Shown one piece after another: positions 2,489 to 17,877 of a stretch of 32,000 bases of DNA (position 1 is its first letter; every line of letters starts with the position of its first letter). Source of the DNA: Acidothermus cellulolyticus 11B (GTDB taxonomy: Bacteria; Actinomycetota; Actinomycetes; Acidothermales; Acidothermaceae); the NCBI RefSeq assembly GCF_000015025.1, contig NC_008578.1:1560001-1592000 (forward strand). Direction: 5' to 3'. The translations under genes were made by a program, and so were the position numbers. The notes beneath the pieces are model-generated. The model was not told the DNA's origin. It saw only the letters and a program-made list of their open reading frames with translations, and did not search any database.

Positions 2489-3163
2489 GTGCACGTGGTA
2501 ATCCTCGGGTGCGGCCGGGTAGGCGCCACCCTCGCCAACAGCCTGGAACGGCTGGGTCACTCGGTCGCCATCATCGACCAGGACGCCCACGCTTTTCGCC
2601 GATTGCCGCCGGATTTCCGCGGGCGGAAAGTCCACGGTTTCGGCTTGCACCGAAGCGTGCTCGAAGAATCCGGCATCCGGCACGCGAGCGCATTCGCCGC
2701 CGTGAGCAACGGCGACAACTCGAACATCATTTCGGCCCGGTTGGCGCGTGAGGTCTTCGGCGTCGAGAACGTGGTCGCCCGCATCTACGACATCCGGCGC
2801 GCCGAGATTTACCAGCGGCTCGGCATTCCTACCGTCGCGACGGTCAAGTGGACCGCCGACCAGATCCTGCGCCGACTGCTGCCCTCCGGTCTGCAGACCG
2901 TGTGGCGGGACCCGACCGGCACGATGGCGCTCGGCGAAGTCCACGTCGATCCCTCGTGGATCGGCCGTCCGCTGACCGAATTGGAAGGGGCCGCCGGCGC
3001 CCGGATCGCATTTGTCACCCGATTCGGCGCCGGGGTTCTGCCGACGCCGGAGACCGTGCTGCAAGAGGGCGACCTCGTCTACCTGCTGGCCCCGGAGACC
3101 CACCTCCGCGAGGCGGCCGAGATCCTGGGCCGGCCACGGGAAGCAGAGCGGGAACATGCGTAA
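2489..3163 (+). CDS. trkA: TrkA-family K+ uptake regulatory protein (TrkA-N/TrkA-C; CeoB-like)
   Basis: GTG start at 2489. The Rossmann motif VVILGCGRVGATLANSLERLGHSVAIIDQD is present, followed by a C-terminal TrkA-C-like region. It is paired with a second TrkA gene, as ceoB/ceoC are in M. tuberculosis. Confidence 0.9.
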   Translation: MHVVILGCGRVGATLANSLERLGHSVAIIDQDAHAFRRLPPDFRGRKVHGFGLHRSVLEESGIRHASAFAAVSNGDNSNIISARLAREVFGVENVVARIYDIRRAEIYQRLGIPTVATVKWTADQILRRLLPSGLQTVWRDPTGTMALGEVHVDPSWIGRPLTELEGAAGARIAFVTRFGAGVLPTPETVLQEGDLVYLLAPETHLREAAEILGRPREAEREHA

Positions 3164-3238
3164 TCGTCCGCAGGCCAGCGCAGGGCGTAATCGTCCGCAC
3201 GCCAACGCCGGGCAGAATCGCCCACACACCAACCCAGA
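3158..3238. repeat. 27-bp tandem repeat x3 (decaying) filling the trkA1-trkA2 spacer
   Basis: The units are gcgtaatcgtccgcaggccagcgcagg, gcgtaatcgtccgcacgccaacgccgg and gcagaatcgcccacacaccaacccaga. Identity is 24/27 for the first pair and 19/27 for the second. Unit 1 contains the trkA1 TAA stop, and unit 2 carries a second in-frame TAA. Confidence 0.9.
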
Positions 3239-5879: not shown

Positions 5880-6431
5880 ATGCCGGGCGAGTTCGCTTCC
5901 GACCCCGCTGCCGACGGCCGGCAGCATGCGCCACCCGGCGACGAGAGCCTGCGGTATCGAGAGCACCGACGGGTGCCGTGGTGGTGGTGGCTTGTCGGAG
6001 CGCTCTTCGTCGTACCAAGCGTGGAGATTGTCGTCGTCTTCGGCCCGGAGTTCTCGCGCCGGCCCACCGTCGGCATGGCCGTCGGCGGCCTCGTCGCGTC
6101 GTTTCTGCTGTTGGTTGTGATCTTCGGGACGGCGTCCCGCTCCACGATCGACGTCACTGCCGCCGGCCTGCGGGTCGGCCGGTCCACGCTCCCGGCCGCG
6201 CACATCGGCCGGGTCCGGGTGTTGGACCGGAACGCAATGCGGCTGATCACCGGCCCGCAGGCCCGCGCGGACGCCGTCCTTCGGCTCCTGCCGTGGCTGC
6301 ACGAGGCGGTACAGATCGAAACGCCCGGCCGGCCGGAGCCGTATTGGGTCGTCGCAACGAAGCGACCCGCGGCGTTGGCTGCAGCACTGACGCAGGTTCA
6401 GGCGGCCGCGCACTCCCGGCAGATCATCTGA
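5880..6431 (+). CDS. DUF3093-family membrane protein (Rv2698-like)
   Basis: The WWWWLVGALFVVPSVEIVVVF and VGGLVASFLLLVVIFG hydrophobic pair is followed by IDVTAAGLRVGRSTLPAAHIG. The start is taken at ATG 5880 inside the long track ORF 5244..6431. Confidence 0.7.
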   Translation: MPGEFASDPAADGRQHAPPGDESLRYREHRRVPWWWWLVGALFVVPSVEIVVVFGPEFSRRPTVGMAVGGLVASFLLLVVIFGTASRSTIDVTAAGLRVGRSTLPAAHIGRVRVLDRNAMRLITGPQARADAVLRLLPWLHEAVQIETPGRPEPYWVVATKRPAALAAALTQVQAAAHSRQII

Positions 6432-6700
6432 TTGCCGTCGCTGATCGCCAGCTGGCTGCGGTGATGAACGAGGAAGCACCGGGTGCAGGTGAACTCGTCG
6501 GCCTGCCGAGGCAGCACCCGGACGGTGAGCTCTTCGTTCGAAAGATCCGCGCCAGGAAGCTCAAATGACTCGGCCAGTTCGGCCTCGTCACCTTCGTACA
6601 GGCCGGTCTGCCGGTCGGCGCGCCGGGCCTTGAGCTCTTCCAGGCTGTCCTCGCCGAGGTCGTCGTCGACCTTACGAGGGGTGTCGTAGTCGGTCGCCAT
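6398..6700 (-). CDS. DUF4193-family protein (Rv2699c-like)
   Basis: The sequence is MATDYDTPRKVDDDLGEDSLEELKARR...FTCTRCFLVHHRSQL...ICRECAA. An acidic N-terminus is followed by a CxxC...CxxC zinc-ribbon-like end. GAGGA lies upstream of ATG 6700. Confidence 0.8.
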   Translation of the reverse strand: MATDYDTPRKVDDDLGEDSLEELKARRADRQTGLYEGDEAELAESFELPGADLSNEELTVRVLPRQADEFTCTRCFLVHHRSQLAISDGNQMICRECAAA

Positions 6701-7810: not shown

Positions 7811-9909
7811 ACCAACTCCGGACGCCGCCAGGGCAGGCCGCGGACGTAGTGGTCCAGAAATGCGAGTACCGTCGCGTACCAGGCCTTGACGTTTCCGGGT
7901 TTGAGAATCCAGTGATTTTCGTCCGGGAAATAGAGGAATTTCGCGTCACAACCGTGCCACACCAAGTCGGCCCACAATTTGAGGCCCTCCGCGATCGGCA
8001 CTCGATAATCCTTGTCACCGTGAATCACGAGCATCGGTGTGCGGATCGCCGCGATGTGTCGATGCGGACTGTTCCGCTCGTAACGCTCAGGTTCGTGCAC
8101 CGGATGACCCCATTCCCGGAGCCACTCCCCCGCGTGATCGGTGACGCCGGTGAAATAATCCAGCGCCCACAGGCTCGCATGGCTGACGATCGCCTTGAAT
8201 CGGTCGGTGTGCCCGGCGATCCAGTTGGCCATGAATCCGCCGTAGGAACCGCCCATTGCCGCGATCCGGGTTTCATCAATGTCAGCGCGGGCCGCCGCCG
8301 CATCGGTGATGGTCATGAGGTCCGCGAATGGCACCGGACCCCAGTCGCGCCACGCTCGGGTGATGAATTCTTGCCCATAGCCTTGCGACAACCCGGGATC
8401 GGGGAGCAGCACCGCATAGCCGCGCGCCGCGAGCAACCAAGGATTCCACCGCCAACTCCAGGAATTCCAACTCATGAGCGGGCCGCCGTGAATCCATAAT
8501 GCCAGCGGGGCTGGGTGCTCAGCGGTTGCTCCGTCCGGAAGGACGAGCCAGGCCCGCAACGGCACACCGTCGACGGCGGTCGCGGTAATCTCGGTCACCC
8601 GGCCGGGATAACTCAGTATTTCGCCCGGTGCGGGAATTTCCATCGGTTTCTGGTCGACGGCATCGACCTCCAGCCGCACCGGCCGCGGCGGCTCGTCGAT
8701 TCGACTCCGCAACGCATAGAGGTATTTGCCGTCCGGCGAGACGTTCACCTCCGAGTACGCGCCGTCCGATGCAAGCCGGCGCACCTGTCCGGTGGCGATG
8801 TCGACGCGAAAGACCGGACAGCGCCCCTGCTCATCGGCAACAAAGAAAACGGCGCTGCCGTCGGCGGAGAACCGGGGATTTGCTGGCCAGTAAGGAAACT
8901 CCGGCGCCAACGGCGTCACCGCGCCGCTGTGAAGATCAACGAGGCGGAGGCTGCACCGTGGCGGGTGGTCACGGTCGCCTTCCTCCTCGCAGACGCAGAC
9001 CACGTACCGGCCGTCCGGAGAGATCGCCGGCTGATCGAAGTTCTGCTTCACCGGTTCCGCGGTCGCGGCGAGCAGAACGCGTCGCTCCCCGCTGGTGGTG
9101 TCGATGGCCACCAGGGATACCCCTTCGACACCGCGACCGAGCGGGGTCCGCCAGCCGCAGACCGCGATCCGGCCGTCGTCGCTGACCGCCAGGCCGACCT
9201 CGTCGAGCGCCCGCCCAGGGTCCGGGGTGAGGTCGTGCAACCGACCGGAAACAGGCTGGGCCGAAGACACGGCCGTCCCGTCGAGATCGACACGAAGCAG
9301 CCGGGGAAAGTCGGGACCAATGTCCCGATCCCAGTGCCGTACCGGCGCTGATTCGTGCAGGACGGCGGAGACCCCCGCCTCACGGCGGGCTTTGCGCCGG
9401 GCGGCGTCCTCCTCGTACGGACCCGGCAGTGCGGGCGCCACGACCAGGACGACGCCGGCCGCCCGGGCGGCGAGCACCTTGGTGATGCCGGCCGACGGCG
9501 CGGCCACCTGATACGCCTCACCACCGGAAGCCGGCAATCGCCACAGCCCAGCTGTCGTCTCGGTCTCCGCACTCCCCGGTGACGGTGACGGACTGGACCG
9601 CTTGGAGACGAAGAGCAGGTCGCCGTCCGCGGTGAAGGCCGGCTGGGTCTCACCTTCCGCGGAGAAGGTGAGCCGACGCGGCGGCGCCTCCCCGGCGGGA
9701 TCGACCTCCCAGAGCGCAGACACGTAAGCGGAATTGTCCGCCGCCGGGGTCTGAACGACGCAGACCAGCCGGCGGCCGTCCGGCGCGAGGATGAGACCGG
9801 CGACCCGTGGGATGGCCACGTAGCGGTCGAGGTCGGCGAAGGGGTGGGCGGCGTCGGAATCGGTTGGTTTGGCGCGCACCTCACCGTCGGGGGGAAGTTG
9901 TGCGGGCAT
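7807..9909 (-). CDS. S9-family serine peptidase (prolyl oligopeptidase/acylaminoacyl peptidase type) with an N-terminal beta-propeller
   Basis: 700 aa. The N-terminal half shows TolB-like repeats (ISPDGRYVV, VSPDGKYLY). The nucleophile elbow is GGSYGGFMANW, and the C-terminal region reads GDKDYRVP...FPDENHW. Confidence 0.88.
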   Translation of the reverse strand: MPAQLPPDGEVRAKPTDSDAAHPFADLDRYVAIPRVAGLILAPDGRRLVCVVQTPAADNSAYVSALWEVDPAGEAPPRRLTFSAEGETQPAFTADGDLLFVSKRSSPSPSPGSAETETTAGLWRLPASGGEAYQVAAPSAGITKVLAARAAGVVLVVAPALPGPYEEDAARRKARREAGVSAVLHESAPVRHWDRDIGPDFPRLLRVDLDGTAVSSAQPVSGRLHDLTPDPGRALDEVGLAVSDDGRIAVCGWRTPLGRGVEGVSLVAIDTTSGERRVLLAATAEPVKQNFDQPAISPDGRYVVCVCEEEGDRDHPPRCSLRLVDLHSGAVTPLAPEFPYWPANPRFSADGSAVFFVADEQGRCPVFRVDIATGQVRRLASDGAYSEVNVSPDGKYLYALRSRIDEPPRPVRLEVDAVDQKPMEIPAPGEILSYPGRVTEITATAVDGVPLRAWLVLPDGATAEHPAPLALWIHGGPLMSWNSWSWRWNPWLLAARGYAVLLPDPGLSQGYGQEFITRAWRDWGPVPFADLMTITDAAAARADIDETRIAAMGGSYGGFMANWIAGHTDRFKAIVSHASLWALDYFTGVTDHAGEWLREWGHPVHEPERYERNSPHRHIAAIRTPMLVIHGDKDYRVPIAEGLKLWADLVWHGCDAKFLYFPDENHWILKPGNVKAWYATVLAFLDHYVRGLPWRRPELV

Positions 9910-11199: not shown

Positions 11200-12141
11200 A
11201 TGGCGGAGCTGCGGTTAATCGGCGTAAGCGCGGACGGGCGATCACTCAGCTTGATCGACACCCACGGGAACGAGCACCGTCTGACCATCGATGACCGCCT
11301 TCGCGCCGCCGTCAACGGGCAACTCTCCCGGCTCGGTCAGCTCACGATGGCGCTGGAGAGCCGCATCTCGCCGCGCGAGATCCAGGAACGGATCCGTGCC
11401 GGGGAGTCCGCGGAAGAGGTGGCGGGTTCGGCCGGAGTTCCGCTGGAGCGCGTGCTGCGGTTCGTTGGGCCCGTCTTGCAGGAGCGTGAGCACGTCGCGG
11501 AGCGGGCACGCCGGGCGCGGATCGCCGTGCCTTCCGGGCCGAGCGTGCTCCTCGCCGACGTCGTCGAGCGGCACGCCATCCGGCAGGGCATGAGCCCCGA
11601 GGATGTCGTCTGGGATTCGGCCCGCCGGCCCGACCATACCTGGGAGGTACGCATCCGGTGGCCGGACGGCGCGACCGCCGCATGGGAATTGGATTTTGCG
11701 CACCAGCACGCCTCGCCGATCGATGGGTTGGCCAAGCGCCTCTCCGGCGGTGAGGAAGAGCCCCCGGCTGAGCAGAGCGCTACCGTGCATCGGCTGATGC
11801 GGGTCGTGCCCACACCCGACGACGTTGACCCGCTGCACCCTCGCGGAACGACAGAATCGACGGTGCTCCCTCAGGCAGCCGTTCCGGCTGCGCCGCCTCA
11901 GGCAACGGTCCCGGCGAGCTCGTCCACGGGCGCTCGGCCGGCGGCCGAGATGGCCTCGGCGCAACCGGTGACGGCGAGTGCGGCCTCGGCCAAGAGTGCC
12001 CCGTCCGACGAACCGATGCGCGACCCGACGGCGGCGGATGCCCAGCCTACGGCCACGCAGCCGGCAAAACGCGGACGTACCCGCGCCCGCGTCCCGAAGT
12101 GGGACGACATCATCTTCGGCATGAAACCAAAGACCGAATAG
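11200..12141 (+). CDS. sepH: DUF3071-family septation protein SepH (Rv1486c-like)
   Basis: The N-terminus reads MAELRLIGVSADGRSLSLIDTHGNEHRLTIDDRLRAAV...ISPREIQERIRAGESAEEVA. The C-terminus is Ala/Pro-rich and disordered, ending in a basic tail (KRGRTRARVPKWDDIIFG). The gene is divergent from ferrochelatase, as in mycobacteria. Confidence 0.85.
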   Translation: MAELRLIGVSADGRSLSLIDTHGNEHRLTIDDRLRAAVNGQLSRLGQLTMALESRISPREIQERIRAGESAEEVAGSAGVPLERVLRFVGPVLQEREHVAERARRARIAVPSGPSVLLADVVERHAIRQGMSPEDVVWDSARRPDHTWEVRIRWPDGATAAWELDFAHQHASPIDGLAKRLSGGEEEPPAEQSATVHRLMRVVPTPDDVDPLHPRGTTESTVLPQAAVPAAPPQATVPASSSTGARPAAEMASAQPVTASAASAKSAPSDEPMRDPTAADAQPTATQPAKRGRTRARVPKWDDIIFGMKPKTE

Positions 12142-12820
12142 CCGACCGCCGGCATCGGCAACCGGACCTCGTCGCTGCGGCGGCCGCTGCGTTACTGATC
12201 GAGCTGCCGCTTCCGTCGTCGGGCGGCCGCACCATCTCACTCAGGCGGCCGGACCCCGAGGCGGCCGGAAAAAATCTTCTGCTCGCCGGTATCAGGACGC
12301 CGGGCATCCGCTCTGGTAGGGCGTAACGTCCACGTGACCAAAGGCGCGCTGACGGGAGCGAGCATGCCGCAGCAGACATCCGGGGGGTGGCGTGAGGCCA
12401 ACGCTGCGGATCGGGCAACGCCGAGCTCGGTTATCGACCTGATGGACGCCCGTCGGCGCGTGGTCGGGCAGATCATGGCATGCCGCCGAAGGCGGCGACG
12501 TCGGGCGCTGATCCGGCGTCTGCCATGAGCGAGGGGCCGCACATTCGGGGGAGGCACGGCAGCCGGCATCGGAGTCCGTGCCTTGCGTGGGGTTGCGCAT
12601 CGACGTGGGGGACGCACAACTCCACGGCGGCGTCGGATCGTTCGACGGAGGCGGGCGATCCGGCGCCGCCGGCATTCCTCGTACCTCCGGCCCACGCAGG
12701 CGGGCGGTACTGCGCCGTCTTGCCGGGCGATGCGCCATCTTCGCCCCGCGACGTGGGTACTCTGCTGTCTCGCCCTGGCACTCGGGCGGTGCGCTGTTCT
12801 GCCCCGGTGCTCGGGTGCCA

Positions 12821-12888
12821 CGTCGTCCGCTCAGGAATTGCGGCACGTTGTCCGCTGAGGCAATAAACGTTGTCCGCTAGGGCAATAA
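12821..12888. repeat. Three direct copies of ACGTyGTCCGCTnrGG; the last two form a 22-bp tandem repeat abutting the S8 gene RBS
   Basis: The copies are cgtcgtccgctcagg (12821-12835), cgttgtccgctgagg (12846-12860) and cgttgtccgctaggg (12868-12882). The full tandem units are acgttgtccgctgaggcaataa and acgttgtccgctagggcaataa. AAGGAG and ATG 12899 follow directly. Confidence 0.9.
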
Positions 12889-12898
12889 GGAGCACGGA

Positions 12899-14086
12899 AT
12901 GCGGTTTGATTATCCGGCACGTAATGAACGGATGCTCGCGCGGCACCCGGACATTGAAGCCGTCAATGCTCAACGCGGCTTGGTCTTTCTGCGCCGCAAT
13001 GAGGTGCTCGCCGTTCAGTCCGACGCCACTGTGGTCGCCGACCGTGGCCGGCGGTGGATCGATGGACATGACGACCATCCGTCGGGAATCGTGCGGTTCC
13101 GGCTTCGGCCGGCGGCGAAGGTCGATGTCGCCGAGTGGACTGCCACCCTTGCCGGCGGAGCGCACAAGCGCATCGGCATCGGTCCGAATCATGTCTGTCT
13201 TGCTCAACCGCAGTGGCATCCAGGGCCTGCCGACGACCCGGAACCGATTGATCCCTTGCCGGCTCCGCCACCGGCCGGTCCATATCCGGCCGGGCCGACG
13301 CCCCGCGTCGCAATTCTTGACACCGGTATCGTCCCGCATCCGTGGTTCCTCAGCTGTCTGTGGTTCGCGACATGCCTGCCGCCCGATTACGAGGTCTTGG
13401 ACGCAAATCTGGATTTCCAGCTTGATTCCCTTGCCGGGCACGGTACATTCATCGCCGGCATATTCCGCAAATACGCGCCGACAGCAGAATTAGTCATCCG
13501 GCGGGTCATTGAAAGCGACGGCGTCACCGATGAATTCCGCCTTATTCACGCGCTGCACGCATTGCCGCGGGTCGACGTCATATCGCTCTCGCTTGGTTGC
13601 TACACCTACGACGACAAGCCGCCGCCCGCCCTGGCCCATGTGCTCGCCCGCATTCCGCGGGACGTCGTGATCGTGGCGTGCGCAGGCAATTGCAGCAGTG
13701 ACCGGCCGTTCTGGCCGGCAGCCATGAAGCGGGTCATCGGCGTGGGCGCGCTCAACGCGGCCGGCTCCGACCGGGCGGACTTCAGCAACTACGGGTGGTG
13801 GGTCGACGCCTGCGCCGTTGGGGAAGGTGTGACGAGCACCTTCGTCACGTTCAACGGACCGCAGCGACCCAGCGGAGATTACGACCCGGACCGCTTCGTC
13901 GGTTACGCGCGATGGAGCGGCACGTCGTTCGCCGCGCCGCGATTCGCCGCAGCGATCGCCGCACGCGTCACGGCCAAGAGTGAACCCGCAAGCCACGCCG
14001 CCGACGCGCTGCTTGATCCGACCGGACGACGCTCATTCCCCGACCTTGGTGTCGCTCTCGACGATGCGCCGGGCACCACACCGTGA
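12899..14086 (+). CDS. S8-family subtilisin-like serine peptidase, no signal peptide, with an uncharacterised N-terminal region of about 140 aa
   Basis: AAGGAG lies 6 nt upstream of the ATG. The triad is in subtilase order: VAILDTGI (Asp), LAGHGTFIAG (His), ACAGN (oxyanion Asn) and WSGTSFAAP (Ser). The N-terminus MRFDYPARNERMLARHPDIE has no hydrophobic stretch. Confidence 0.85.
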   Translation: MRFDYPARNERMLARHPDIEAVNAQRGLVFLRRNEVLAVQSDATVVADRGRRWIDGHDDHPSGIVRFRLRPAAKVDVAEWTATLAGGAHKRIGIGPNHVCLAQPQWHPGPADDPEPIDPLPAPPPAGPYPAGPTPRVAILDTGIVPHPWFLSCLWFATCLPPDYEVLDANLDFQLDSLAGHGTFIAGIFRKYAPTAELVIRRVIESDGVTDEFRLIHALHALPRVDVISLSLGCYTYDDKPPPALAHVLARIPRDVVIVACAGNCSSDRPFWPAAMKRVIGVGALNAAGSDRADFSNYGWWVDACAVGEGVTSTFVTFNGPQRPSGDYDPDRFVGYARWSGTSFAAPRFAAAIAARVTAKSEPASHAADALLDPTGRRSFPDLGVALDDAPGTTP

Positions 14087-14107
14087 CCGAGACAGGGCGA
14101 CACGCCG

Positions 14108-14129
14108 GGTATGCCGTCCGCGGCGTACC
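14108..14129 (+). terminator. GC-rich hairpin 22 nt downstream of the S8 stop (possible factor-independent terminator or attenuator, or an inverted-repeat operator)
   Basis: The sequence ggtatgccg-tccg-cggcgtacc gives a 9-bp stem (one G-U pair) and a 4-nt loop. There is no U-tract. Confidence 0.3.
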
Positions 14130-14215
14130 TCGCGATAGCGTGTCGTGGACTGCACCGCCATCGACGACCAGACGGCGGCGACGGGGGGTGACGGGCAGAG
14201 CGGGAGTTCCGGCTG

Positions 14216-14794
14216 GTGACCGACCAGAGCACCTCCACCTTGGTAGCGGCGGCGAGAGCGGGCAGCCGAGAGGCTTGGCATGCGCTCGTCGATCGCTATG
14301 CCCGCCTGGTCTGGGCGGTGATCCGCGGTCATGGCATCGGCGGCATGGATGCGGCGGACATCAGCCAGACCGCGTGGTTACGGCTGGTCGAACACCTGGA
14401 CCGGCTCCGCGACCCCGACCAGGTCGGCAGCTGGCTGGCGGCGACGACCCGACACGAGTGCCTCCGTTTTCTCAATCGCCGGGGCCGAGAGCACGTCACC
14501 GAGTCACTTCCCGATCACCCGTCCGTCGAGCCAACTCCAGAGGAACACGTCGTGGCAGCTGATCGCGACCGGCTCCTGGCCGCGGCGCTCGCCCAGCTGC
14601 CGCCTCGGTGCCGGGTGCTCCTCCGGGCGCTCACCAGCGACCCAACGCCCAGCTATGCCGAACTCGCCGCCGCACTCGACGTTCCGATCGGCAGTCTCGG
14701 CCCGACCCGCAGCCGCTGCCTCGCGCGGCTCCGCGAGCTTCTGGCCGCCCTCGGCCACGAGCCCGATGTCGAATCCGCCGGGAGCAACCGGTGA
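14216..14794 (+). CDS. ECF-type RNA polymerase sigma-70 family factor
   Basis: 192 aa. The region 2-like part reads WHALVDRYARLVWAVIRGHGIGGMDAADISQTAWLRLVEHL...SWLAATTRHECLRFL. The region 4-like part reads LPPRCRVLLRALTSDPTPSYAELAAALDVPIGSLGPTRSRCLARLR. GGGAG lies 9 nt upstream of GTG 14216. Confidence 0.88.
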   Translation: MTDQSTSTLVAAARAGSREAWHALVDRYARLVWAVIRGHGIGGMDAADISQTAWLRLVEHLDRLRDPDQVGSWLAATTRHECLRFLNRRGREHVTESLPDHPSVEPTPEEHVVAADRDRLLAAALAQLPPRCRVLLRALTSDPTPSYAELAAALDVPIGSLGPTRSRCLARLRELLAALGHEPDVESAGSNR

Positions 14795-15240
14795 GCACCG
14801 ACGAACAGCTGCTTCAGACGCTACGGGCGGCGCTCGACCGGACCGACCCAATGCCGGAGGCGATCCGTGCCGCAGCCTACGCTGCGTTCGCCTGGCGCGA
14901 CATCGACGCCGAACTGGCCGCTCTCATCGCAGACTCCGCGGAGACGCCCATACCGGCAGGCGTGCGCACGGCCGCAGATCATCGGCTGCTGACATTCCGG
15001 GCCCCGGGGACGGAAATTGAGATTGAAGTCGCCGGGGAGCGGCTGCGGCAGCTGACAGGCCAGCTTGTACCGCCAGGCCCGGCGAGCATCACGGTCTGCT
15101 GGCCGGCCGGGTCCCTCGCCGTGGAAGCCGACGACCTCGGTCGCTTCACCGCCGACAACGTTCCTCCCGGGCCGGTGAGCTTGCAGGTGCGGCGGCCCAG
15201 CGCAGCCCGTCCGGTTAGCACCGACTGGGTGGTCATCTGA
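14791..15240 (+). CDS. Sigma-coupled 149-aa protein of unknown function (candidate soluble anti-sigma/partner)
   Basis: GTG 14791 overlaps the sigma stop (GTGA), and GGGAG lies 6 nt upstream. The N-terminus is helical (LLQTLRAALDRTDPMPEAIRAAAYAAFAWRDIDAELAALIAD). The C-terminus resembles a carboxypeptidase-regulatory-like beta-sandwich (GRFTADNVPPGPVSLQV). There is no TM segment and no HxxxCxxC motif. Confidence 0.6.
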   Translation: MSTDEQLLQTLRAALDRTDPMPEAIRAAAYAAFAWRDIDAELAALIADSAETPIPAGVRTAADHRLLTFRAPGTEIEIEVAGERLRQLTGQLVPPGPASITVCWPAGSLAVEADDLGRFTADNVPPGPVSLQVRRPSAARPVSTDWVVI

Positions 15241-15252
15241 CACCCTGAGGGC

Positions 15253-17877
15253 GTGCCGCGCGCACGAACGCCACTCCCCGCGGAAGCGGCCGCCCCCGCA
15301 GCCGAAGCAGCGGCTGCGGCGTACGCGGCCAGCGGTACTGATCCGCACCGAGCACGTGCGCTTGCCGAGTCGGTGCTCAACGGTCCGGCGCAGCCAGCGG
15401 ACGCCGTCCTCGCCCTCCGTGCGCTCGCCTTGGCGACCCGGCGTCTCGCTGGACCACGGCCCGCTCTCCGGCATGCGGTCCGGGCCGTTCAGGTGGCTCG
15501 CCGCCACGGTCTGATTGAGCCGCTCGCGCACGCGCGGATGACGTACGCGGCGCTCCTCGCCGAGACGGGCCGGACCGCCCTCGGGTATGAGGAGTGCCTC
15601 CGGGCGGCGGCCGAGCTCCGCGGCGTCCAACGCGGCCCTGTCCTCGCGCAACTGGGCCTGCTCGCCGCCCGGATCGGGGACACCGAGGCGGCACTGCGGT
15701 ACTACGCCCGCGCGCTTCCCCTGCTGCGCCGGACCGCTGACGTCCACGGGCAATGCCGTCTCTATCTCAACCGGGCCAACACGCTGGCGTACGCCGGCCT
15801 ATGGGACGCCGCGGAGCGCGACCTGCGCCGCGCGGCGGAGGTTGCGAACTGCGCCGGGCTGGCCGAGTATCGGTCGACCATCGCGGAGAACCTCGGGTTC
15901 GTCCGGCTGCGCCGCGGGGACGTCCTCGGTGCACTGCGCCACCTCGACATCGCCATCGAGGACGCCGACCCGTACGGCCGGCTCGCCATCACCTGTGACC
16001 GCGCCGAGGCGCTGCTCGTGGCTGGACTCGCGGGCGAAGCACGCCGCGAGCTTGAGCAGGCCATCCCGCAGCTTGCCGCCGCCGGGTTCGCGATCGACGC
16101 CGCCGAGTGGCACCTGCTCGCGGCCCGGGCGGCCCTCGCGGAGGGCGACTGGACGGCGGCGGCGGACCGGGCCGCGCACGCGGCCGAAGCCTTCCGCCGC
16201 CAGCGACGCCGGAGCTGGGAGCTGCTCGCCCGCCACGTCCTGCTCGCGGCTCGGTTCGGCGGCGGGGAACGCAGCGGCCGGCTCCGTGCCGCCGCCCGGC
16301 GCTTAGCCGCCGAACTCGCCGGACGCTGGCCGGAGTCAGCAGCCCGTGCCCTGGTGATCTGCGGGGAGATCGAGGCGGCGCGACGGCGTGCTGACCAGGC
16401 CATCGGTTACTTCCACGACGCGGCCGCGCTCGTCGTCCGGCACCGCCACCCACCGGCGCAGTGGCGGGCGGCGGCCTATTACGCCAGGGCGCGGGCCCAC
16501 ACACTGAGCGGCAATCTGCCAGCCGCCCGGGCTTCGCTCCGCGCTGGTCTTCGGATCGTGCGGGAGTACGCCGCCTCTCTCGGGGCCACCGACCTGCGGA
16601 TCAGCGCTGCGGCATTCGGCCGCGACCTCGCGGAGGAAGGATTGCGGCTCGCCCTCCGTTCGGGCCGGCCGTCCGTCCTCCTCGAGTGGTCGGAGATCGC
16701 CCGGGCCACGGCGCTGCGCAGCCGACCGCTGCGGCCGCCGGCTGACCCCGAGCTTGCCGCCGATCTCGCCGAATTGCGCAGGGTGACCGGCCTGCTCGCT
16801 GACGCCATCGCGGTTGGAGAGGACGCCCGCCCGTTGCGGGCCCGGCAAACGGAACTGGAAAATCGCATCCGGCATCGGGCCAGATTGCTCGGGCAGCAGG
16901 TCTGGCGCGGCGAGCTCACCGCACCGTGCCGTACGCCGGTCCTGGCTGCGGCACTTGGTGATCGGACCCTTGTCGCCTATGTCGCCGTGGACGGGAACTT
17001 GTTCGCCGTCACCGTGCACGGCCGGAGGTGCCGGCTCACGGCGCTCCCCGGATACCGGGAAATTCGCGATGAACTGCGCTCACTGCGATTCAGCATGCAG
17101 CGGATCGCCCATCGGCACGGCTCCGCGGCAGCGCGGTCGGCCGCCGTCCTAGCCCGGGATCACGCAATCGACCGACTGCGTGCCCTTCTCCTTGCCCCGC
17201 TGCGTCTTCCTGACAGTGAACTCATCGTCATTCCCACGGGTGACTTGCACGCCGTCCCGTGGTCTGCGCTGGTTGACGATCGACCGGTGACCGTCGCCCC
17301 CGCCGCGCACCTATGGCTCGGCTCCGTCCGCTCATCCGCCGGACGCAATCACCGCGTCACCGTGGTGGCCGGTCCCCGCCTTGCCCATGCCGACACCGAA
17401 ATCCGCGCCGTCGCCGCCCGCTATCCACGCGCCCAGGTGCTCACCGCCGAGACGGCAACCGTCGGCGCCGTCCGTGCGGCGATGGACGGCGCCGACCTGG
17501 TGCACATCGCCGCACACGGCCGGTTCCGCAGCGACAACCCGTTATTCTCAGCCATCGAACTGGCCGACGGACCGCTCACCGTTTATGACGTCGAGGAATT
17601 ACGTCGTCCCCCGCGCGTTCTCGTTCTCTCGGCGTGCGAATCCGGATTGTCCGCCGTGCACCCGGGCGACGAGCTGATGGGACTCACCGCGGCGCTGCTT
17701 GGCATGGGGACACGGACGGTCATCGCCTCGGTCTGTCCGGTGCCGGACGACCTCACCGCCGACTTCATGACGGAATTTCACCGGCATTTCGCGGCACGGG
17801 CGGACGCCGCAGCGGCACTTTTCGCGGCTCGCAACGCAATTGCGTGTGACGGTTTTCTCTGCTTGGGTGCGGCGTAA
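15253..17877 (+). CDS. TPR-CHAT protein: about 560-aa Ala/Arg/Leu-rich TPR-like solenoid plus a C-terminal CHAT (caspase-fold) peptidase domain
   Basis: 874 aa. TPR-like repeats are present, for example EAALRYYARALPLLRR and LYLNRANTLAYAGLWDAAERDLRRAAEV. The CHAT dyad context is LVHIAAHGRF (His) and RVLVLSACESG (Cys). No P-loop was seen. The start lies 12 nt after the preceding stop, and the exact start is uncertain. Confidence 0.85.
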   Translation: MPRARTPLPAEAAAPAAEAAAAAYAASGTDPHRARALAESVLNGPAQPADAVLALRALALATRRLAGPRPALRHAVRAVQVARRHGLIEPLAHARMTYAALLAETGRTALGYEECLRAAAELRGVQRGPVLAQLGLLAARIGDTEAALRYYARALPLLRRTADVHGQCRLYLNRANTLAYAGLWDAAERDLRRAAEVANCAGLAEYRSTIAENLGFVRLRRGDVLGALRHLDIAIEDADPYGRLAITCDRAEALLVAGLAGEARRELEQAIPQLAAAGFAIDAAEWHLLAARAALAEGDWTAAADRAAHAAEAFRRQRRRSWELLARHVLLAARFGGGERSGRLRAAARRLAAELAGRWPESAARALVICGEIEAARRRADQAIGYFHDAAALVVRHRHPPAQWRAAAYYARARAHTLSGNLPAARASLRAGLRIVREYAASLGATDLRISAAAFGRDLAEEGLRLALRSGRPSVLLEWSEIARATALRSRPLRPPADPELAADLAELRRVTGLLADAIAVGEDARPLRARQTELENRIRHRARLLGQQVWRGELTAPCRTPVLAAALGDRTLVAYVAVDGNLFAVTVHGRRCRLTALPGYREIRDELRSLRFSMQRIAHRHGSAAARSAAVLARDHAIDRLRALLLAPLRLPDSELIVIPTGDLHAVPWSALVDDRPVTVAPAAHLWLGSVRSSAGRNHRVTVVAGPRLAHADTEIRAVAARYPRAQVLTAETATVGAVRAAMDGADLVHIAAHGRFRSDNPLFSAIELADGPLTVYDVEELRRPPRVLVLSACESGLSAVHPGDELMGLTAALLGMGTRTVIASVCPVPDDLTADFMTEFHRHFAARADAAAALFAARNAIACDGFLCLGAA

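Follow-up and report, generated by a model that had tools for sequence, protein, structure and literature searches.

Control of a sigma factor of the extracytoplasmic function (ECF) type by a protease of the caspase fold has been demonstrated biochemically in Craspase and is no more than a proposal for DdvA, and both systems come close to the locus analysed here, a four-gene cassette encoding an S8 peptidase, an ECF sigma factor, a small partner protein and a TPR-CHAT protein in a 32,000-nt stretch of the chromosome of Acidothermus cellulolyticus 11B (NC_008578.1, positions 1,560,001 to 1,592,000, hereafter the window). Craspase consists of Cas7-11/gRAMP, the TPR-CHAT protein Csx29, Csx30, Csx31 and the sigma factor RpoE (PMC10028731, PMC9825189). 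DdvA from Myxococcus xanthus is a TPR-CHAT anti-sigma factor that has already been characterised and for which CHAT proteolysis was proposed as the releasing step (PMC11506125). The third described relative is the sigma factor group ECF54, for which we rely second-hand on a 2022 review (PMC8999054, citing Huang 2015 and Casas-Pastor 2021) and not on the original article by Huang et al. (2015, J Bacteriol). The ECF54 passage of this review describes an actinobacterial group with no canonical anti-sigma factor, whose conserved neighbours encode carboxypeptidase(-regulatory-like), subtilase and CHAT domain proteins, and on the grounds of those neighbours proteolytic control of ECF54 was already proposed there. 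Casas-Pastor et al. (2021, NAR) likewise count ECF54 as actinobacterial, see no clear regulator for it and name a 4Fe-4S protein as a further neighbour.

Judged by its architecture, taxonomy and gene context, which match the description of ECF54, the cassette is the conserved neighbourhood of this already described group and therefore not new, and our confidence in this identity is much higher than in the full mechanism proposed below. Indeed, the sigma factor is made of regions sigma2 and sigma4 alone (Sigma70_r2 and TIGR02937 account for residues 19-176 out of 192), it comes from Actinobacteria, no canonical anti-sigma gene adjoins it, and its neighbours are of the carboxypeptidase-regulatory-like, subtilase and CHAT types, with no structural difference between ECF54 and the cassette; the 4Fe-4S protein was not seen in the window. 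An earlier note on this stretch had read the four genes as a stand-alone, protease-gated ECF cassette, and the linkage of the genes, the active sites and the architecture of the partner all speak for that description, while its implied novelty has to be given up because the ECF54 proposal is in print. In the ECF54 literature we found no experiment (and thus no experimental test of the proposed proteolytic control), no promoter motif and no partner structure; new here are a candidate promoter motif, a structure model of the partner and a model of the TPR-CHAT protein.

Compared with Craspase, the cassette has the same output logic, i.e., a TPR-CHAT protease, a cleavable partner (cleavage being putative in the cassette) and an ECF sigma factor, but, as the earlier note had said, neither a Cas7-11/gRAMP gene nor a CRISPR-like array nor any cas-like gene was found in the window. 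No Cas7-11/gRAMP gene or CRISPR array was seen either in the related loci inspected, and the 149-aa partner has no detectable homology to Csx30, which is a larger protein. The activating signal cannot be a duplex of CRISPR RNA and target. The DdvS-DdvA pair resembles the cassette in that an ECF sigma factor stands under a separase/Craspase-type TPR-CHAT protein with a His-Cys dyad. However, DdvA is one transmembrane protein that joins a zinc-binding anti-sigma domain, a transmembrane helix and a periplasmic, dimeric TPR-CHAT part, and it involves intramembrane proteolysis by RseP, whereas the cassette has a separate TPR-CHAT protein predicted to be cytoplasmic, a separate 149-aa putative anti-sigma factor without zinc motif or transmembrane helix, and an added S8 peptidase. 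We also considered the TPR-CHAT protein itself as a DdvA-like anti-sigma factor and rejected this, since it has no hydrophobic segment and its solenoid, which starts at residue 14 in the model, leaves no room for an anti-sigma domain. Separase, the best structural match, has the same layout as the cassette protein, in which a CHAT/caspase-fold domain bearing a His-Cys dyad comes after a helical solenoid, but it belongs to a different kingdom, with different substrates (cohesin) and regulation (securin, Cdk1), and the likeness is limited to ~14% identity and a global TM-score of 0.3-0.45. The CalpL-CalpT-CalpS system is alike in that a cytoplasmic protease, once activated by a signal, cuts a small anti-sigma factor and thereby frees an ECF sigma factor, and unlike in that the protease is of the Lon/SAVED type, activated by cyclic oligoadenylate and associated with type III CRISPR.

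Conservation of the cassette in Actinomycetota

The four genes are co-directional on the + strand (coordinates in Table 1), the GTG start of the partner gene and the TGA stop of the sigma gene share bases in a GTGA overlap, and the TPR-CHAT gene starts 12 nt 3' of the partner stop; in all of this, coordinates included, the earlier note was accurate. The same applies to the catalytic residues, since the S8 peptidase (motifs AILDTG, GHGT, AGN and GTSFAAP) shows the Asp-His-Ser triad of its family in order together with the oxyanion Asn, and the TPR-CHAT protein carries the His motif HIAAHG and the Cys motif SACESG. Profile searches recovered the CHAT, Peptidase_S8 and sigma-70 families that had been named for these genes (E-values in Table 1). 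Over stretches of 19 residues, the highest Kyte-Doolittle value in the four proteins is 1.45, which is below the transmembrane level, and all four are therefore predicted to be cytoplasmic, without signal peptide or membrane helix. The sigma factor has the usual length and shows neither an extension nor an obvious pro-sequence, and its region-4 motif PIGSIGPTRARCL is common to its homologues.

To count linkage, relatives of the sigma factor were searched in one genome per species, the search being seeded with the sigma alignment because the partner alignment was too weakly conserved to serve as a seed. The best 80 loci were taken, their six-frame translations were scanned with profiles of the four proteins, and the counts refer to the 57 sigma loci flanked on each side by 5 kb or more, with families located within 10 kb. 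Of the best sigma-related loci, 79/80 are titled Actinomycetota, the exception (L064) being an unclassified 'uncultured bacterium' metagenome-assembled genome (MAG); the loci cover Actinomycetes, Acidimicrobiia, Thermoleophilia and Nitriliruptorales, and the named protein homologues of the sigma factor likewise all come from Actinomycetota. The partner, S8 and CHAT genes are found together near the sigma gene in 32 of the 57 loci, the partner and CHAT without S8 in 4, the partner and S8 without CHAT in 1, the partner alone in 8 and none of the three in 12. The partner gene adjoins the sigma gene in 45/57 loci, and 37 of these 45 partner-bearing loci have one protease or both, compared to none of the 12 partner-less ones; among the 57 loci, S8 or CHAT never occurs without the partner. 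Cassettes display seven gene orders or orientations, the succession of sigma and then partner remaining constant throughout, and the order of the window is found in six loci, the window included.

As 32 of the 57 loci keep the four genes despite seven gene orders, their clustering is not a matter of chance, and the co-occurrence that the earlier note had proposed to check is thus borne out. The catalytic residues of the orthologues did not prove degenerate either, with the S8 Asp/His/Asn/Ser set intact in 47/47 of them, the CHAT catalytic His present in 46/47 and the Cys in 47/47. A reverse look-up led from CHAT homologues with just 31-35% identity back to the same cassette, and a Geodermatophilaceae CHAT homologue (39% identity) lies on a short contig that holds CHAT, sigma and the first part of the partner gene, with no S8 gene. 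Overall, the cassette is widespread and mostly single-copy in Actinomycetota. In the lineage of the window it is part of the core chromosome and not an island, since the flanking gene order matches that of an Acidothermus genome. The closest named relative is this Acidothermus MAG (locus L001, 62% sigma identity), where DUF3093, inositol monophosphatase, S9 peptidase, ferrochelatase and DUF3071 genes precede the cassette and phosphodiesterase, DUF5998 and GGDEF-EAL genes follow it, as they do in the window, the remainder of which consists of housekeeping genes.

Two side observations concern the cassette and its sigma factor. In a Promicromonospora sp. (L089, CP163528.1, 2840-12371), the cassette has two tandem CHAT paralogues and lies in the ribosomal protein/rpoB cluster, where rplA and rplJ enclose it and an insertion sequence (IS, rve) element is its neighbour; this location points to mobility of the cassette as a unit. 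In region 4 of the sigma factor, two cysteines are conserved among 11 relatives, Cys132 (in ERC) almost without exception and Cys168 (in RARCL) without any, and a Geodermatophilaceae relative has R and S in their places; the two residues may form a redox or metal site.

Structure models and a candidate promoter

The partner is most likely the anti-sigma factor of the system and as such would bind the sigma factor. It is the best candidate for this role because it is the sole invariant neighbour, is translationally coupled to the sigma gene, and combines a short helical hairpin with an exposed linker. In the AlphaFold model, built from 38 homologues with a mean pLDDT of 85.5, the partner is predicted to start with a two-helix hairpin (helices 3-18 and 23-49) and to continue, from residue 65, with a seven-strand beta-sandwich; the linker between them (~50-63) is modelled with low confidence as disordered and bears the invariant Arg59. 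Minimal anti-sigma factors such as CnrY and NepR use a short hairpin of this kind. Conserved positions gather at the end of helix 2 (W35, R36, D39, A40, E41, L42, A43, L45, D48 and S49), giving the motif WRxxDAELAxL...DS, and the core of the sandwich is likewise conserved. The hairpin has no Pfam match at E up to 10. The family comprises 4762 cluster representatives at E <=0.001, the best 150 of which are stand-alone proteins, mostly of 145-170 aa with a few of up to 254 aa, and some UniRef entries for homologues of the partner are named CarboxypepD_reg.

One partner homologue of 207 aa (P0361) has the helical hairpin duplicated in tandem with a single beta-sandwich after it, and this duplication shows the hairpin to be a separate module. 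What seems to be a sigma-partner fusion (P0400) has the look of a gene call with a frameshift, and no evidence was drawn from it.

For the TPR-CHAT protein, the AlphaFold model (pLDDT 91.9, pTM 0.90) predicts ~26 solenoid helices followed by a CHAT domain with His755 and Cys795, both of which are invariant in a set of 47 homologues, and the TPR matches in Pfam are weak and sub-threshold. Foldseek matched the model to human separase (E 5e-16), Csx29 (3e-14), DdvA (6e-13) and the Scalindua TPR-CHAT protein, these structural matches showing ~14% identity and global TM-scores of 0.3-0.5. On the basis of this model, the protein is placed in the separase/Craspase-type architecture class, with no member closer than the others. 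Membership in the Csx29 family itself is ruled out, as the family model NF041237 gives 22.9 bits, in the catalytic region only, against a cut-off of 300. The likeness to Craspase on which the earlier note had built is thus retained as a distant fold match, and it does not extend to a special relationship, since separase and DdvA are about equally close, the Csx29 model failed and no match to Csx30 was found.

The note had also offered the N-terminal region of the S8 peptidase as a possible sensor. These ~100 residues are present in most orthologues, poorly conserved and without family match in Pfam at E up to 10; after them come a GPNHV motif of moderate conservation and a Pro-rich linker. Such sequence features lend no support to a sensor role, and a propeptide-like nature of the region is possible.

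A bipartite motif, GTATCA-N15-18-CTCT, emerged from spaced k-mers ranked by enrichment 5' of sigma genes, an unranked bipartite search being swamped by GC-rich coding k-mers. The exact pattern GTATCA-N15-18-CTCT occurs at 70 sites in ~1.5 Mb of related loci, and control patterns (scrambled boxes, reverse-complemented -35, wrong spacings) mostly gave 0-2 matches, the frame-shifted -10 control TCTC giving 18. The spacer measures 16 or 17 nt in 67 of the 70 exact sites, the flanks are biased towards (T)GTATCA(G) and (G)CTCT(G)(T), and 42/70 sites lie at most 2 kb from a sigma start; the first cassette gene downstream of the site is sigma in 14 cases, S8 in 10 and the partner in 9. A scan with a position weight matrix (PWM) returned 117 sites, compared to 10 in shuffled sequence. 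Among them, 16 are upstream of sigma, 16 of the partner and 13 of S8, none is directly upstream of CHAT, and other sites precede unrelated neighbouring genes, which may be members of the regulon. In the window itself, the sole strong PWM site (score 23.3; the highest score in 20 shuffles was 17.7) is located ~600 nt 5' of the S8 gene, and the operon probably runs from this candidate promoter through CHAT; a sigma-70 promoter scan gave none in the cassette region. In several loci the sigma gene starts just ~10 nt after CTCT, which implies that its transcripts would be leaderless there. Given its enrichment, its position and the general habit of ECF sigma factors to regulate themselves, GTATCA-N16/17-CTCT is a candidate for the cognate promoter of this sigma factor; a literature search for GTATCA together with ECF yielded no paper reporting the motif.

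The motif was also met in partner-less loci. Divergent GTATCA...CTCT pairs less than 100 nt apart occur in L018 (~8490-8565) and L025 (~11395-11471), ~1.4 kb downstream of partner-less sigma genes, and such pairs may be divergent regulon promoters. Several of the 12 partner-less sigma loci, to which L013, L031 and L043 belong, have a glycosyltransferase-like gene downstream, and in L038, L055 and L081 the motif stands upstream of an open reading frame (ORF) that resembles a class-III aminotransferase by eye only. This suggests that the partner-less sigma factors form a sister subgroup with another regulator and the same promoter type.

Proposed mechanism and competing explanations

We propose that the two-helix hairpin of the partner would keep the sigma factor inactive, much as a minimal, class-II-like anti-sigma factor does, and that its beta-sandwich and flexible linker would offer a handle and a cleavage site to the two cytoplasmic proteases. 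An intracellular signal would act on the TPR-CHAT protein, probably via the long TPR solenoid; the caspase-fold and/or the subtilisin-like protease would then cut or degrade the partner, with S8 as the second protease or as an amplifier. The freed sigma factor would transcribe from GTATCA-N16/17-CTCT promoters and, as one of these would precede the whole operon, would feed back on sigma, partner and S8. We infer both the order of the proteases and the cleavage of the partner by either of them, and for the chain as a whole, in which the partner is an anti-sigma factor removed by proteases so that the sigma factor is freed and the motif promoters are used, we consider the case evenly balanced. 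Three observations fit it. The proteases never occur without the partner, so they appear tied to the partner and not to the sigma factor; CHAT lacks the motif when transcribed on its own, as suits a constitutively present sensor; and S8 and the partner sit behind the motif, which fits the feedback. The more specific claim, i.e., a stand-alone cytoplasmic two-protease cascade that cleaves a large family of minimal anti-sigma factors at the conserved linker and frees a sigma factor using GTATCA...CTCT, is put forward tentatively, as possible rather than probable.

Several points weigh against this proposal and should be set beside it. The partner has no anti-sigma match in Pfam or NCBIfam. Its profile, compared at E up to 10 with PDB sequences (a set that includes the Csx30-bearing complex 8eey), gave nothing convincing and no Csx30, and a Foldseek search of the PDB with its model returned generic beta-sandwiches only, with no anti-sigma factor or Csx30. 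The conserved linker motif is equally present in partner loci without proteases, and because it is kept there it is not attributable to the proteases. In addition, 8 of the 57 loci have sigma and partner with no protease within 10 kb, so that the proteases are either not obligatory or encoded elsewhere. The candidate promoter lies upstream of a cassette gene in just 38/86 loci, and the position of S8 and the partner behind a putatively sigma-dependent promoter would fit equally well with both being outputs. The assignment to ECF54 was made by context and taxonomy and not by the group's own model; note that the Geodermatophilaceae sigma factor of the same cassette, 41% identical to that of the window, is not the named ECF54 exemplar SFT86700.1. 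Finally, both the binding of sigma and partner and the cleavage are deduced from sequences and structure models.

If the two-protease cascade holds true, it would be a widespread actinobacterial counterpart of Craspase/Csx30 and of DdvA that works without CRISPR or membrane, and the partner family of ~4,800 representatives, for which Pfam has no model, would consist of previously unrecognised minimal anti-sigma factors. This matters as ECF54 is among the ECF groups without a recognised regulator. A soluble four-protein cassette that is widespread in Actinomycetota would also make an easy system in which to study the activation and substrates of a caspase-like protease, and such work could start from the candidate promoter, from the exposed linker and the invariant Arg in the model of the partner, and from the finding that the proteases are confined to loci with the partner.

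The question of outputs leads to the first competing explanation, namely that a partner-controlled sigma factor responds to another signal and induces the proteases, which then remodel or destroy proteins in stress, dormancy or programmed cell death. The candidate promoter indeed stands upstream of S8 genes (13 sites) as well as of operons with a CHAT gene, and since the cassette contains neither a nuclease nor a pore effector, the role of effector could fall to the proteases. However, a divergently placed CHAT gene never has the motif directly upstream (0/117 sites), which fits a constitutive sensor better, the proteases are confined to partner-bearing loci, and a position behind the promoter does not discriminate since anti-sigma factors are routinely co-transcribed with their sigma factors. 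We therefore regard proteases as mere outputs as unlikely, although this explanation keeps a real share of our belief.

If, instead, the proteases acted directly on the sigma factor, by degrading or maturing it, the partner would be an adaptor, a chaperone or a co-sigma factor. This follows the statement of the review on ECF54 (PMC8999054), and the lack of similarity of the partner to known anti-sigma domains also speaks for it. Yet the sigma factor has its usual length without extension or obvious pro-sequence, the absence of proteases from all 12 loci of partner-less sigma factors ties them to the partner, and overlapping genes are typical of sigma/anti-sigma pairs, which together make direct action on the sigma factor quite unlikely.

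A role as an anti-phage module appears less likely again. The cassette would then be a CRISPR-less relative of Craspase and DdvA-DdvS, whose TPR-CHAT protein senses a phage protein and frees the sigma factor for defence genes, in agreement with its fold, which is like those of Csx29 and DdvA, with the control of a defence island by DdvA-DdvS (PMC11506125) and with the mobile or phage-like neighbours of some loci, such as holin and endolysin (L008), the IS element (L089) or Mrr and HopA1 (L005). Against this, PADLOC 2.0 gave marginal matches only (BovA with 21.5 bits and a subtilase model with 28.8 bits; none for sigma and partner), the cassette of the window lies in a conserved housekeeping neighbourhood common with the Acidothermus genome, its wide, mostly single-copy occurrence is more typical of a core regulatory system, and no defence genes are found among the motif-linked neighbours in the window; we thus judge the anti-phage role improbable. 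As for adjacency by chance of four functionally unconnected genes, it has nothing in its favour beyond being possible a priori and can practically be discarded, considering that 32 of 57 independent loci from four Actinomycetota classes hold the four genes within 10 kb in seven orders and that distant CHAT homologues lead back to the same cassette.

Upstream elements and minor features of the window

Table 1. Positions, within the 32,000-nt window, of the four cassette genes and of the elements 5' of the S8 gene
Feature	Position	Strand	Evidence or location
S8 peptidase gene, 395 aa	12899-14086	+	Pfam Peptidase_S8 PF00082, E 2.3e-20, residues 135-359
ECF sigma gene, 192 aa	14216-14794	+	Sigma70_r2 PF04542, E 5e-13; TIGR02937 sigma70-ECF, E 2e-22
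Partner gene, 149 aa, probable anti-sigma	14791-15240	+	Weak CarboxypepD_reg match, E 0.0027 (Pfam)
TPR-CHAT gene, 874 aa	15253-17877	+	Pfam CHAT PF12770, E 5e-41, residues 642-863
Candidate ECF promoter, GTATCA (-35-like), 16-nt spacer, CTCT (-10-like)	12289-12314	+	PWM
Tentative Arg-rich small ORF, 54 aa, MPQQ...RRRRRRRALIRRLP	12364-12528	+	Between promoter and S8 gene
Three tandem 22-nt direct repeats (ACGTTGTCCGCTNRGGCAATAA)	12820-12888	+	Directly 5' of the S8 ribosome-binding site

Two further elements stand between the candidate promoter and the S8 gene (Table 1). Similar Arg-rich ORFs of ~50-60 aa are located between the motif and an S8 or sigma gene in ~7-9 loci (L001 at ~6374-6523, L022, L029, L050, L056 and L087, and less clearly L034 and L014). 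The ORF of the window, which lacks a gene annotation in the public record and has no Pfam match at E up to 10, overlaps a GCCGCC-GAA-GGCGGC hairpin, and because of this overlap the segment may act as a structured leader RNA and not encode a protein; an Rfam scan of the window returned no RNA family. The 22-nt repeat is unique in the window, where 0 chance matches are expected, and is AT-rich for this genome. In the Acidothermus locus L001, the position 5' of the S8 gene lacks the repeat and is taken by a GC-rich hairpin. The repeats are possibly an operator. Outside the cassette, one terminator-like match lies on the minus strand at ~12132-12147.

Downstream of the cassette, the segment 17900-22400 has a lower G+C content (0.62-0.66, compared to ~0.69 elsewhere in the window) and holds an ABC ATPase gene and several ORFs without Pfam match. 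It is probably an insertion, since it takes the place of the single rhodanese gene of the Acidothermus locus L001. At the other end of the window, two distinct 27-nt tandem repeats, with 2-3 copies each, are found at 2400-2463 and 3158-3237, in the intergenic regions flanking two TrkA-type genes.

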